Shown piece after piece: positions 7,600 through 55,648 of a DNA stretch of 64,000 nucleotides. The notes below the pieces were generated by a model. The model searched no databases and was not told the origin of the DNA. It saw only the letters and a program-made list of their open reading frames with translations. Origin of the DNA: Nitrosopumilus sp. (GTDB lineage Archaea > Thermoproteota > Nitrososphaeria > Nitrososphaerales > Nitrosopumilaceae); contig OZ245003.1 in the NCBI GenBank assembly GCA_965223425.1, forward strand, positions 160,001 to 224,000, given 5' to 3'. Made by a program: the position numbers and the translations under genes. Position 1 is the first letter of the stretch. The number at the start of each line of letters is the position of its first letter.

Positions 7600-8408
7600 T
7601 CATTTTATTGATTCCCCTCCACCCACTGCAAGTATTGCACCAGTAGTCCATATGCGTCATCTGACATAAAATATATTATAGCTTTTGCTATTTCTTCTGG
7701 TTGGCCAATACTGCCTTGGGTGCTCACCACCCATGAATTCTTTGTCTTTTTGAGTTTGTAAAAACGGTTTTGCCATATCTGTATCTGCTACTCCCGGACA
7801 CGCAATTGACTATAATTTTGTCCTTGGCATGTTCAAGTGCCCAACATTGTCAGTATAGCTAAAGCAGCTTTTGAGGCAGTGTATTATCGGCATTAAAATC
7901 TTGATGTGTCTTTAGTCCTGCATCCGACGAAATGTTAATTATCGAACCGCCTGTTTTTTCCAAATGAGGGATTGCTTCCTTGGCAAATCTAAACTGTCCT
8001 GTAAGATTACGTTTAAGACTTGATTCCATCCCAAAATCTGATTTCATGTAATTGTTTGATCTTTGGAAATATGCCGGGCATTATTTACAAGAATATCCAA
8101 TTTACCAAATTTTTCAATTGTTTTGTTTACAACTTTTTTTTAAATTCATTCCTATTTCTAATACCAGCTGCAATACCTACTGCACTAGGAATTTCAACAC
8201 TGATTTCTAATCTTTCTTGATCTCTTGCTGTAATAATTACAGTTGCTCCATTTTCTGATAAACATCTTTGCTGTAGCAAAACCTATTCCACGACTTCCAC
8301 CTGTTACTCAGATGCCTTGTCACACTTTATTGCCAAAGTTCTAGGTAGCAAAACCTATTCCACGACTTCCACCTGTTACTATGGAACTTTCCCAGATAAT
8401 CTCAACAT
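7600..8408 (-). pseudogene. short-chain dehydrogenase/reductase (FabG-like) pseudogene
   Basis: Fragments in several frames: MLRLSGKV, VTGGSRGIGFAT, DILVNNA, GSIINISSDAG, SKAA; multiple frameshifts plus a 72-bp insertion. Confidence 0.88.
8273..8380. repeat. perfect 36-bp direct repeat separated by a 36-bp unique insert
   Basis: GTAGCAAAACCTATTCCACGACTTCCACCTGTTACT at 8273-8308 and 8345-8380; insert CAGATGCCTTGTCACACTTTATTGCCAAAGTTCTAG. Confidence 0.95.
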
Positions 8409-8539
8409 TTTTTACATAAAAATTCGTAATTCATAGATCAATTCTGTCTCATACAGGCATAAAATATTTCATAAAAATCTATAGAAAACTATAATTTATT
8501 ATCTAAAATGTTAAATAGTTAAAGTTACTATATTAATTA

Positions 8540-8669
8540 ATGCCGAAGGATATAATTCCTATCGACTGAAATTGCGTAGCCCCGCAGAACGAGAAAGGCA
8601 ATCAGACGTTATAACGTTCTGACAACGAGAGGAAATCTCTCAAAGTTCTGTAGCAAAGGGGTTTACGCC
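8540..8669 (+). ncRNA. candidate structured non-coding RNA
   Basis: GC-rich intergenic block with nested helices (8574-8583/8658-8668; 8584-8590/8645-8651; hairpins 8602-8622 and 8627-8641); G.U pairs favour + strand; TTAAATA box at 8511-8517. Confidence 0.6.
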
Positions 8670-8670
8670 A

Positions 8671-9099
8671 TCATCTTTCTAAAATATCGACAGATACGGA
8701 TCCCATCACATTTCCGTTTGGATTGATAGTAATTGAAATTTCCTGCATTTCTGAAATCAAAACGGTTTTTTGTCCATCATATTCCCACGTGAAATATTCA
8801 GATGCCCCAGCTTGATGCTTGGTGCCCTCAAGTTTAAAATCTTCAGAAAAATCAAATCTTTCTCCGTTCAGTATTATTGACAATGTGTTTGGGCTACTGC
8901 CATTTGGCACAAATCTAAAATAATATTCTCCTTTGTCCACAGTAAATACATCAGTATATACTCCGTTAACATACAAATCAGGTTCTGCAAGAGTTATGTG
9001 AAATACTACATTGTTCTCTCTCTCTGATGGGTCTGATGAAAAAACTACTAAAATTGCAACTATGCCGATTATTGGAATTAACATAATTTTTTTGTCCAT
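8671..9099 (-). CDS. membrane-anchored hypothetical protein
   Basis: N-terminal TM/signal anchor, 142 aa. Confidence 0.8.
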   Translation of the reverse strand: MDKKIMLIPIIGIVAILVVFSSDPSERENNVVFHITLAEPDLYVNGVYTDVFTVDKGEYYFRFVPNGSSPNTLSIILNGERFDFSEDFKLEGTKHQAGASEYFTWEYDGQKTVLISEMQEISITINPNGNVMGSVSVDILER

Positions 9100-9159
9100 T
9101 TACACAAGTTCCAAATTCCATTATAAAAATAAATTTCTAATTTAATTTAGAACTAAGCA

Positions 9160-9706
9160 TTAAAAATATTGTTTTTCTCCAATCTTTACAGTTGATACTT
9201 CTAATTTCTTAAGATGCCCTAATGCTCATGAATCATTAATTAAATTCATTAATTTTTCATTTTTAACATATTAGGTGTAGTGACTGCCTCTTCAAAATCA
9301 TAAAGTTTTATCACTCCATTTCTAACATTTTCAGATTCAATTTTTTTATTATGTGCAAAATCATCTCTGATTTCTCTGGTCTCATCAAGCTTTTGTTGAA
9401 TTTTTACTCTTGCACTTTCATCAATTTTATTTTTAAAATCTATATGATGTTTCATTATTCTAGATAACCAAACAATTTTTGTACCAAATGATGCGGTTTG
9501 ATCTTCATCAAACACTGTTTTTGCCCATAAGGGAAAATCATTTTTATATAGTAAAAATAAAACTGGCATAATTACAATAAGTGTAGAATCTAACACTGCT
9601 ACGCAGCTTAAGAAATTTCTCTGAATTCTGTTAACCAAGTTAACATATTCTTTGTCTGTGGATTTTTTAGATCTTCAGGTAAATCAAAACCAGATGGTTC
9701 GCCCAT
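9160..9706 (-). pseudogene. decayed HEPN-like (RxxxxH) protein gene
   Basis: MGEPSGFDLPEDLK / frameshift / STDKEYVNLVNRIQRNF...RDDFAH... / second frameshift and in-frame TGA near the 3' end. Confidence 0.55.
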
Positions 9707-9870: not shown

Positions 9871-9928
9871 TAAATTTTGTTAGTTAAATTTTATGTACTG
9901 TAAACCAATCTTTACACTTGAAATTAAG
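9871..9928 (+). promoter_or_regulatory. cdvB-paralogue promoter: upstream 21-bp motif plus TATA-like ATTAAG
   Basis: TAAATTTTGTTAGTTAAATTT at -80..-60 and ATTAAG at -28; same motifs and spacing upstream of the second cdvB. Confidence 0.7.
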
Positions 9929-9950
9929 TACGTATTTTAAAATTAAACTC

Positions 9951-10592
9951 ATGCCTAATTTACATAATAAATGGTCAAAACAACCACGACCAGGCATTGG
10001 TGAAAAAATTAATGATACTCTCAAGCCTAAAGGTCCTTTAAAACCAAGAGTACAGGAAGGAATTAAAAAATTACAATTACAAATTAAAAAATTAGATTCA
10101 ATGTTGACCAATTTACAAGAACGTGATGCAAAACTATTTCAACGAATTGTAGAGGCTACACAAAAACATGATACTCAAACCAGTAAAGTTCTTGGTAATG
10201 AATTAGCAGAAGTAAGAAAAGTTACAAAAATTTTGAGCAGTGCTAGAATAGCATTAGAACAGATTGAATTACGATTAACTACTTGTAGTGATCTTGGAGA
10301 TACTGTAGTTGCAATCATGCCAACTATGGGGCTGATGAAGAATCTAAAATCTTCTCTTGGTAAGATAATGCCTGGAGCAGAACAAGAAATCGGTCAAATG
10401 GCAGAAATGCTTGGAGGATTTATGACAGAAAGTTTCTCAGGAGACTCAGCATTTGGAGTTGATGAAACTACCAATTCAGAATCTGAAGCAATTCTTAAAG
10501 AAGCTGCCGCTGTTGCAGAAAGTTCTGCAGGCCAAATGTTTCCTTCAGTTCCAACAGAGACACAAGAAGCAACTACTGCAAAATTTCTATAA
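9951..10592 (+). CDS. cdvB: ESCRT-III/Snf7-family cell division protein (CdvB paralogue)
   Basis: PLKPRV...LGNELAEVRK...LEQIELRLTT..DLGD; paralogous to 42680-43330; start set at ATG 9951. Confidence 0.92.
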   Translation: MPNLHNKWSKQPRPGIGEKINDTLKPKGPLKPRVQEGIKKLQLQIKKLDSMLTNLQERDAKLFQRIVEATQKHDTQTSKVLGNELAEVRKVTKILSSARIALEQIELRLTTCSDLGDTVVAIMPTMGLMKNLKSSLGKIMPGAEQEIGQMAEMLGGFMTESFSGDSAFGVDETTNSESEAILKEAAAVAESSAGQMFPSVPTETQEATTAKFL

Positions 10593-55574: not shown

Positions 55575-55648
55575 TGCGGAGTGCGGGATTTGAACCCGCG
55601 GCCTTCAGCTTGGGAAGCTGACGTCATACCAGGCTAAACTAACTCCGC
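55575..55648 (-). tRNA. tRNA-Gly(CCC)
   Basis: GCGGAGT acceptor, TCAGC-TTCCCAA-GCTGA anticodon arm, GCGGG-TTCAAAT-CCCGC T arm; 74 nt, no intron. Confidence 0.97.

Follow-up and report, generated by a model that had tools for sequence, protein, structure and literature searches.

What does a guanine-plus-cytosine (GC)-enriched block in otherwise AT-rich intergenic DNA of a marine archaeon encode, when no tRNA, rRNA or protein gene is apparent in it? The question is raised by a locus in Nitrosopumilus sp., in the window analysed here, a stretch of 64,000 nucleotides (nt) of contig OZ245003.1 (assembly GCA_965223425.1, positions 160,001 to 224,000), where an initial annotation made from the letters alone had proposed a promoter-driven, multibranched RNA beginning with a nine-codon micro open reading frame (micro-ORF). 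Comparative analysis shows that the block is an uncatalogued, conserved and structured RNA gene on the plus strand, predicted to stand alone and kept Nitrosopumilaceae-wide. The core proposal of an undescribed, promoter-driven, multibranched thaumarchaeal RNA is upheld by the lack of any Rfam family match, by covariation of its helices, by a TATA-like box at −29, by an excess of G.U pairs on the plus strand and by the finding that the element is not multicopy.

The RNA gene occupies window positions 8540-8669 on the plus strand (130 nt), which in genome coordinates is the covariance model match G000:C1:168540-168669 (133 bits). In 100-nt windows the GC content is 0.40-0.42 over 8550-8699 and 0.20-0.21 over 8400-8549, which bears out the GC-enriched block of about 130 nt that had been noticed. 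The minimum-free-energy (MFE) fold of 8541-8675 on this strand reaches −41.5 kcal/mol compared with a shuffle mean of −27.2 (z = −4.34), and none of 200 dinucleotide shuffles folds as well. Its architecture is the one first described: after a 5′ hairpin and a linker comes the stem P1/P2, which is bulged on its 3′ side and leads into a three-way junction from which P3 and P4 branch. The TTAAATA box, the ATG, the ORF, the 5′ hairpin, P1, P2, the AGCAAA bulge and the two junction hairpins were all found where the initial annotation had placed them.

Read from its 5′ end, the RNA opens with the terminal hairpin P0 (8542-8566), which has eight modelled pairs, internal mismatches and an A-rich loop; the hairpin AGGA/TCCT described earlier is present but was drawn too short, the helix conserved in the family running from G3 through G10 with positions 20-27. 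P1 joins GCGTAGCCCC (8574-8583) to GGGGTTTACGC (8658-8668), after which an unpaired C follows at 8669, and P2 joins GCAGAAC (8584-8590) to GTTCTGT (8645-8651). Between the 3′ strands of P2 and P1 lies the bulge AGCAAA (8652-8657), which is present in all copies at a length of 3-7 nt with its first A and the next purine mostly kept; the 5′ strand contributes 0 nt here, and the P1/P2 internal loop is one-sided. Inside P2, the purine-rich junction strand J2/3 (GAGAAAGGCAA, 8591-8601) has an A-rich pattern and a GG that are kept in the family consensus, the hairpin P3 (8602-8622) varies in sequence and length, with covarying basal pairs and insertions or deletions in its upper part, and the hairpin P4 (8627-8641), GAGAG-GAAAT-CTCTC, is near-invariant and is recognised both by its pairing and by its recovery with RNAalifold.

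Covariation among homologues argues that this fold is maintained as such. In a within-genus MAFFT alignment of 31 sequences with a hand-drawn structure, 94.4% of cells are paired, falling to 34-46% when the partners are slid by 1-3 columns. In a second alignment, of 101 copies (99 distinct) fitted to the covariance model, compensatory, both-sided change was found in 26 of the 35 modelled pairs and 93.3% of cells are paired (36-45% with partners slid by 1-3 columns), values that none of 500 shuffles reached, with the reservation that these pair counts lean towards structure because the alignment was fitted to the model. Helix by helix, compensatory change affects 8 of 8 pairs in P0 (81.5% of cells paired), 6 of 10 in P1 (96.6%), 5 of 7 in P2 (97.8%), 5 of 5 at the base of P3 (93.9%) and 2 of 5, the two outer ones, in P4 (98.4%). 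Independently of the model fit, RNAalifold applied de novo to a MAFFT alignment of 41 diverse copies recovered the outer part of P1, with compensatory change in 4 of 6 pairs, and P4, with compensatory change in 3 of 5; it recovered only these two because insertions and deletions misalign P0, P2 and P3. Homologue collection thus revealed family-wide conservation with compensatory changes in every helix, as would be expected of the proposed structured RNA.

Conservation is strongest in P4, followed by P2 and the junction purines, while the length and sequence of P3 vary freely. Among the 99 distinct rows the P4 loop is GAAAU in 63, GGAAU in 17, GUAAU in 12 and something else in 7, and loop type does not track the sequence type of P0. 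A mutual-information scan detected no convincing pair outside the helices, no partner column for J2/3 and no alternative pairing. The P4 motif itself is overrepresented across the genome (30 matches with at most one mismatch, compared with 7 for a reversed control), an excess that we regard as irrelevant, having traced it to a protein-coding tandem repeat, a multicopy inverted-repeat element and coding sequence. Two of these were recorded in their own right during that scan: the protein-coding tandem repeat, with a period of 63-66 nt, lies at G000:C1:1628507-1628840, and the multicopy element occurs as an inverted pair at G000:C1:1501600-1502230 with at least three further copies in the genome.

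Is the plus strand the one that is transcribed? The opposite strand of the element also folds better than its shuffles (z = −3.71), so the strand is not decidable from folding alone. This, together with the fact that the element abuts the stop codon of a convergent gene, is what could be said for the absence of any RNA gene, the block being instead a minus-strand 3′ untranslated region or terminator of that gene, a decaying repeat or a chance fold. Within P1-P4, however, G.U cells number 130 and A.C cells 17; these counts would swap on the minus strand, where the G.U pairs would become mismatches, and the excess supports the plus strand, as had been suggested from the G.U pairs of the single sequence. 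A plus-strand TATA box conserved at −29, the existence of copies away from the convergent gene, the single copy in this genome and the conservation and covariation across 26 genera point in the same direction, and we consider it extremely improbable that there is no RNA gene here.

The predicted promoter is of archaeal type and extends over 8505-8539 on the plus strand, with TTAAATA at 8511-8517, 29 nt before the ATG at 8540-8542, an A-rich stretch just upstream of the box and a conserved CTATA-like proximal element at about −12. Across the family, 146 of the 169 copies with 45 nt of upstream sequence have a TATA-like heptamer that starts at exactly −29, counted from the A that opens the RNA. 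This is the usual archaeal spacing between TATA box and start, so transcription is predicted to begin at that A or right beside it. At the other end, a T-containing tract at 8670-8680 (plus strand) overlaps the last codons and the stop of the convergent gene; it is weak here (ATCATCTTTCT) and TTTT-rich in most relatives, 141 of 177 copies having TTTT in the 15 nt that follow and T making up 66% of the first 12 nt. The T-rich tract begins 1-2 nt after P1, and we infer that it serves as a terminator. Taken together, the G.U excess, the TATA-like box at −29 and the T-rich tract argue for a plus-strand RNA with its own promoter, and the box and the tract sustain, at the level of predicted signals, the earlier description of the element as promoter-driven. 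No pattern shared with this promoter was found in the promoters of the signal recognition particle (SRP) RNA, RNase P RNA and 5S rRNA genes, and a naive scan for how often this leaderless geometry occurs in the window, with TTWAWA starting at −28 to −31 for only 5 of 51 first-ATG ORFs, is not fine enough to draw on.

How widely is the RNA distributed, and could it be a repeat? Both blastn and two covariance models, R1 built on 31 full-length copies and R2 built on 101 diverse copies, found the element once in its own 2.64-Mb genome. A miniature inverted-repeat transposable element (MITE) or other multicopy repeat, which the initial annotation had named as an outcome that would overturn its proposal, is rejected on these grounds, relatives having one to three copies at syntenic places. 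By blastn the element is present in 23 of 24 genomes of the same genus, 12 of which have a second, paralogous copy; the one congener with no match (G013, 78% complete) was also negative with the covariance model. R1 gave full-length matches in 131 of 150 other Nitrosopumilaceae genomes and in 25 of 27 genera, at one to three copies each, a tally over 150 genomes that, like the one for a neighbouring protein discussed below, counts three unpublished genomes (G117, G132 and G133) whose sequence was not used. In an order-wide draw, 22 of 23 genomes of the family matched.

Outside the family, neither model found a credible copy in 127 genomes of 19 other families, nor did laxer filters in 21 genomes outside it. 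The best two matches are marginal: the one at E 0.07 was rejected as having no P4 motif and no promoter-like upstream sequence and as looking coding, and the one at E 0.48 has a P4-like stretch and otherwise fits the model poorly. Within the family, genus g29, negative in the large scans, does carry the RNA in a GC-rich and diverged form where synteny predicts it (E 3.6e-8 locally, 1.3e-5 genome-wide), and with this copy the RNA is found in 26 of the 27 sampled genera. In genus g21, with genomes of 0.8-0.9 Mb, none of four genomes yielded the RNA, lax filters included. An exact-pattern scan of metagenome contigs returned at least 118 stretches, and the RNA was confirmed in all 80 loci examined; viral contigs gave no match to a 24-nt pattern and at least 119 stretches with a 15-nt pattern, of which all 80 examined were negative with the covariance model.

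Two observations on copy number stand apart from these tallies. The genome studied here is the largest in the genus sample and has one copy of the RNA, the second copy near purP being found in 12 of the 24 congeners. In genus g34, locus L105 (G152:C184, 1501-1617 and 1810-1925) contains two tandem copies about 190 nt apart, both with a TATA-like box of their own and both with a mini-ORF, of nine and eight codons, respectively.

Does the RNA belong to a known family? With Rfam 15 at gathering thresholds, the whole window contains only a tRNA at 55575-55648 and nothing at the element. At E ≤ 10, the region 8380-8760 returned four weak matches, to three C/D-box small nucleolar RNA (snoRNA) models and one microRNA, all on the minus strand, scoring 13-17.5 bits compared with thresholds of 55-90, and only one of them touches the element; no self-cleaving ribozyme class in Rfam matched there at that E-value. 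ARAGORN found no tRNA or transfer-messenger RNA (tmRNA) gene in 8300-8900. The housekeeping RNAs were also rejected, the genome having its single copy of each elsewhere and above cut-off: SRP RNA at C1:280817-281128, RNase P RNA at C1:1907418-1907697 and 5S rRNA at C1:551462-551581. A C/D guide was rejected because the only matches of that kind are sub-threshold, on the opposite strand and to eukaryotic C/D-box snoRNA models (E 0.97-9.3), and because it is helices, not boxes, that are conserved. H/ACA guides are marked by an ACA (ANA) box 3′ of the lower stem and by a two-sided pseudouridylation pocket; here what comes after P1 in most copies is a C and a T-rich stretch, the P1/P2 loop is one-sided, and this class was likewise rejected. 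The searches support the claim that the RNA is undescribed and agree with the early judgement that it is not a tRNA, 5S, SRP or RNase P RNA or a C/D guide. In the full-text literature, as covered here with the start-site supplementary tables of PMC5069720 (thaumarchaeal contigs) outside its scope, no description of this RNA was found.

The first 30 nt of the gene are unusual. The micro-ORF (MPKDIIPID*, 8540-8569, plus strand) consists of ATG, eight codons and TGA (8567-8569) and stops 4 nt before P1. ATG stands at the predicted first base in 78 of 82 distinct 5′ regions from genomes and in 56 of 59 from metagenomes, 48 of which are new, and is followed by eight (or seven) codons and a stop, which is the open-frame part of what a dual-function small RNA would display. 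Frame 0 is open as far as the conserved stop in 82 of 82 and 58 of 59 of these regions, compared with 17 of 82 and 10 of 59 for frame +1 and 64 of 82 and 44 of 59 for frame +2. The first in-frame stop, be it TAA, TAG or TGA, is always codon 10 (codon 9 in shorter forms), 3-5 nt before P1; in four sequences (L088, L090, L105 and one metagenomic) the hairpin is 3 nt shorter and the ORF measures 27 nt with its frame kept, and the ORF is also retained in GC-richer genera (L105, L106 and L078). When columns were shuffled so as to preserve pairs among 91 distinct standard-length sequences, a mean of 12 acquired a frame-0 stop, whereas none is observed and none of 2000 shuffles gives zero, a comparison that overstates the constraint on the ORF because it ignores relatedness.

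This retention, together with a TATA-like box from which a start on or immediately beside the A of the ATG is predicted, is what one would expect if the RNA were dual-function and gated by ribosomes. The nine-codon ORF would then be translated, and the act of translation, not the peptide, would matter: a ribosome at the stop 3-5 nt before P1 would open P1 and unfold the three-way junction, and the activity or stability of the RNA would report translation capacity. We treat this explanation as tentative and as possible rather than likely, because in genus g29 both the AUG and the stop are gone although the hairpin and all other parts of the RNA are still there, because the sole detected copy in a 96%-complete congener (G016) starts with ACA and two further copies start with ACG and ACT, because pairing at the foot of P0 takes up the G of the 5′ AUG and should make initiation there harder, and because covariation of the hairpin explains part of the constraint. 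The more specific proposal of a ribosome-operated archaeal RNA switch, in which the mini-ORF delivers a ribosome to the stop 3-5 nt before P1, so that translation would open and close the domain and couple its trans-acting function to translation status, seems to us doubtful; were it true, it would constitute a new class of translation-sensing riboregulator in nearly all Nitrosopumilaceae.

The peptides diverge widely (MPKDIIPID, MSLVVKSGD, MQKDAKSTA, MRKDVNPNK and MTFVVRVMD), and the predicted mini-ORF is retained too faithfully to be passed over, yet varies too much to encode a functional peptide. Of the conservation that the initial annotation had looked for between its ATG and TGA, the open frame is there, but the peptide is not, and g29 and a few other copies have no ORF at all. 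The idea of a dual function, peptide plus structure, is neither shown nor excluded by an ORF that is predicted only.

Could the RNA instead act on its neighbours? No plus-strand ORF of at least 40 amino acids (aa) begins between the element and 9918 except a 44-aa TTG ORF inside the convergent gene, in agreement with the first impression that no plus-strand gene follows. The convergent gene (8671-9099, minus strand) encodes 142 aa with an N-terminal hydrophobic segment and no Pfam family, and has its stop codon 2 nt past the end of the element. In 64 of 101 RNA copies this gene is the first clustered ORF downstream, its stop mostly 1-16 nt from the RNA end, and with this query the protein was found in 129 of the 150 family genomes and in none of the 127 outside. 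In genus g27 the RNA occurs in 8 of 9 genomes and the protein in 0 of 9, and in genus g29 the protein occurs in 5 of 5, its gene beside the diverged RNA; these patterns indicate that the 142-aa gene is not strictly tied to the RNA.

Its tail-to-tail position in many genera, and the restriction of both RNA and gene to Nitrosopumilaceae, could suggest that the RNA is a cis-antisense partner of this gene, the two 3′ ends overlapping and the mRNA being controlled by a duplex or by transcriptional interference. A purely antisense RNA, however, would have no need of a conserved fold, and here 26 of 35 pairs show covariation; second and third copies adjoin other genes, and g27 has the RNA with no such gene, all of which make an antisense role most improbable.

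Three genomic contexts were distinguished. In the main one, a divergent short-chain dehydrogenase gene lies upstream and the convergent 142-aa gene downstream; second copies have a small gene upstream and a convergent PurP-type gene (DUF1246/DUF1297) downstream; and in genus g36 (L080, L082 and L083) an extra copy has a divergent wyosine-type radical-SAM gene upstream and a same-strand CorA magnesium-transporter gene downstream, at +97 to +105. Since both main contexts have a convergent gene downstream, the RNA would be mostly a stand-alone gene and not a leader, and a cis-regulatory leader was rejected for all but the three g36 loci, the only context where the RNA could be one. A leader-peptide attenuator was also rejected: there is no shared codon run, the mutual-information scan gave no alternative pairing, and mostly no same-strand gene lies downstream.

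The architecture nevertheless resembles that of an aptamer, in that P1 covaries, the junction with P2 and P4 is conserved and the peripheral P3 varies, and the T-rich tract 1-2 nt after P1, the closeness of the convergent stop in 64 of 101 copies and the g36 CorA genes would all suit a riboswitch-like sensor acting in cis. The junction would bind a ligand, and P1, placed before the T tract, would decide between termination and read-through, the latter entering the convergent gene, be it the 142-aa gene or purP, in antisense orientation or, in g36, CorA in sense orientation. We judge this improbable: no Rfam riboswitch model matches, no alternative pairing was detected, archaeal termination is not known to need a hairpin, and g27 has the RNA with no 142-aa gene while g29 has the gene beside a diverged RNA. 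The neighbours of paralogous copies also differ, comprising an unknown exported protein, PurP, TFB and a beta-CASP-like gene, which argues against a common regulated function. Read-through control and an antisense role are thus possible readings that fit the varied neighbourhoods poorly.

Several features of the surrounding genes were observed in passing. Beyond the 142-aa gene, a conserved protein of about 213-224 aa (cluster c3) follows in many genera and corresponds to 9918-10592 on the plus strand of the window; a relative of it (L009) has no Pfam match at E ≤ 0.001. The upstream short-chain dehydrogenase (7605-8400, minus strand), intact at 247 aa in relatives, is broken here into several short ORFs. 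Near its 5′ end, a 35-nt direct duplication (8274-8308 and 8346-8380) flanks an insert of 37-38 nt (about 8308-8345) that is 97% identical to G000:C1:1420650-1420687, and contigs from public runs, four of which were examined, break at 8302, 8311, 8345 and 8351, where depth is higher and loose ends lead elsewhere. The site looks like the footprint or junction of a repeated or mobile sequence.

What, then, does the RNA do? We hold with moderate confidence that the locus encodes an independently transcribed RNA of about 130 nt that acts in trans, most likely bound by a protein, and whose mini-ORF keeps ribosomes out of its domain. In this reading it would act as a stable RNA, protected by P0, which begins 2 nt from the 5′ end. 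The arrangement of covarying helices around an invariant hairpin and junction suggests a partner that reads specific bases; this would most likely be a protein recognising the invariant P4 hairpin and the junction purines, and less likely a ligand or another RNA. Ribosomes would bind the 5′ AUG, and the nine-codon ORF at the predicted first base would have been retained for that reason, its in-frame stop 3-5 nt before P1 keeping ribosomes out of the functional domain, or else letting them modulate it; a conserved peptide would not be the reason for its retention.

We caution that a number of points weigh against this interpretation. About 95% of distinct 5′ regions retain the AUG, those of GC-richer genera among them, which is more than a merely tolerated ORF predicts and favours gating by ribosomes, and the sole length variant of the ORF (27 instead of 30 nt, in four sequences) keeps the frame. 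At the three g36 loci the RNA lies about 100 nt upstream of a same-strand CorA gene, where a leader role would fit. Neither in P4 nor in the junction could a motif known to bind proteins be recognised, and the case for a bound protein and for action in trans consists of the contrast between invariant and covarying positions and of the stand-alone gene arrangement. The start, end, abundance and expression of the RNA are inferred from sequence signals, none of the six sequencing runs found to contain window positions 8000-9700 being recorded as RNA, and the lean of the model-fitted alignment and the three unpublished genomes in the family tallies, both mentioned above, belong to the same account.

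Retention in 26 of 27 genera, a near-consensus promoter at a fixed distance and a covarying fold indicate that the RNA very likely does something important. Nitrosopumilaceae are among the most abundant marine archaea and carry out much of marine nitrification, and the genome studied here encodes an archaeal AmoA. In the full-text literature no regulatory or structural RNAs were found described in Nitrosopumilaceae beyond the universal ones; the element is a new RNA family, widely distributed in an ecologically dominant archaeal family. The covariance model is ready for use in genome annotation to name the RNA gene, and the RNA provides a defined experimental target in cultured strains as well as a natural test case for the use of an extreme 5′ AUG by ribosomes in this lineage and for the gating of an RNA domain by a tiny ORF. 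Should its partner be a ligand, the RNA would join a very short list of riboswitch-like RNAs from archaea.

How does it compare with known systems? HgcC-type RNAs are orphan structured small RNAs that form GC-rich islands in AT-rich archaeal genomes. Tan1, from marine group II archaea, is another orphan structured small RNA of this kind (PMC5069720). The RNA described here resembles both in being a GC-enriched block in AT-rich DNA with its own predicted promoter, a conserved fold and restriction to one lineage, and differs in matching no Rfam model, those of these families included, in belonging to another lineage and in having a conserved ORF at its predicted 5′ end, which those RNAs are not known to have. 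SgrS/SgrT, RNAIII/delta-haemolysin and SR1/SR1P are bacterial dual-function small RNAs that encode a short peptide, and they share with it the combination of a short ORF and a conserved structured part in one small transcript; here, however, the ORF has nine codons and lies at the predicted first base, the peptide is unconserved, the organism is archaeal and translation is a prediction. Leader-peptide attenuators of the trp/his and erm types likewise have a very short ORF that ends a few bases before a stable helix, followed by a U run, whereas two of the three main contexts of this RNA have no same-strand gene downstream, and neither a regulatory codon run nor antiterminator pairing was detected. 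Riboswitch aptamers built on a three-way junction have a similar junction closed by P1, in which the core is conserved and the peripheral hairpin varies, but this RNA matches no Rfam riboswitch and is mostly a stand-alone gene with a convergent downstream neighbour. With tmRNA it shares the association of a structured RNA with an ORF of about ten codons ending in a stop, but ARAGORN found no tRNA-like part and the ORF starts with a 5′ AUG, not at an internal resume codon; tmRNA is not known from archaea. On this comparison the RNA works most like the other orphan structured small RNAs of archaea, its layout is like that of dual-function small RNAs and leader-peptide elements, and it is a member of none of these groups.

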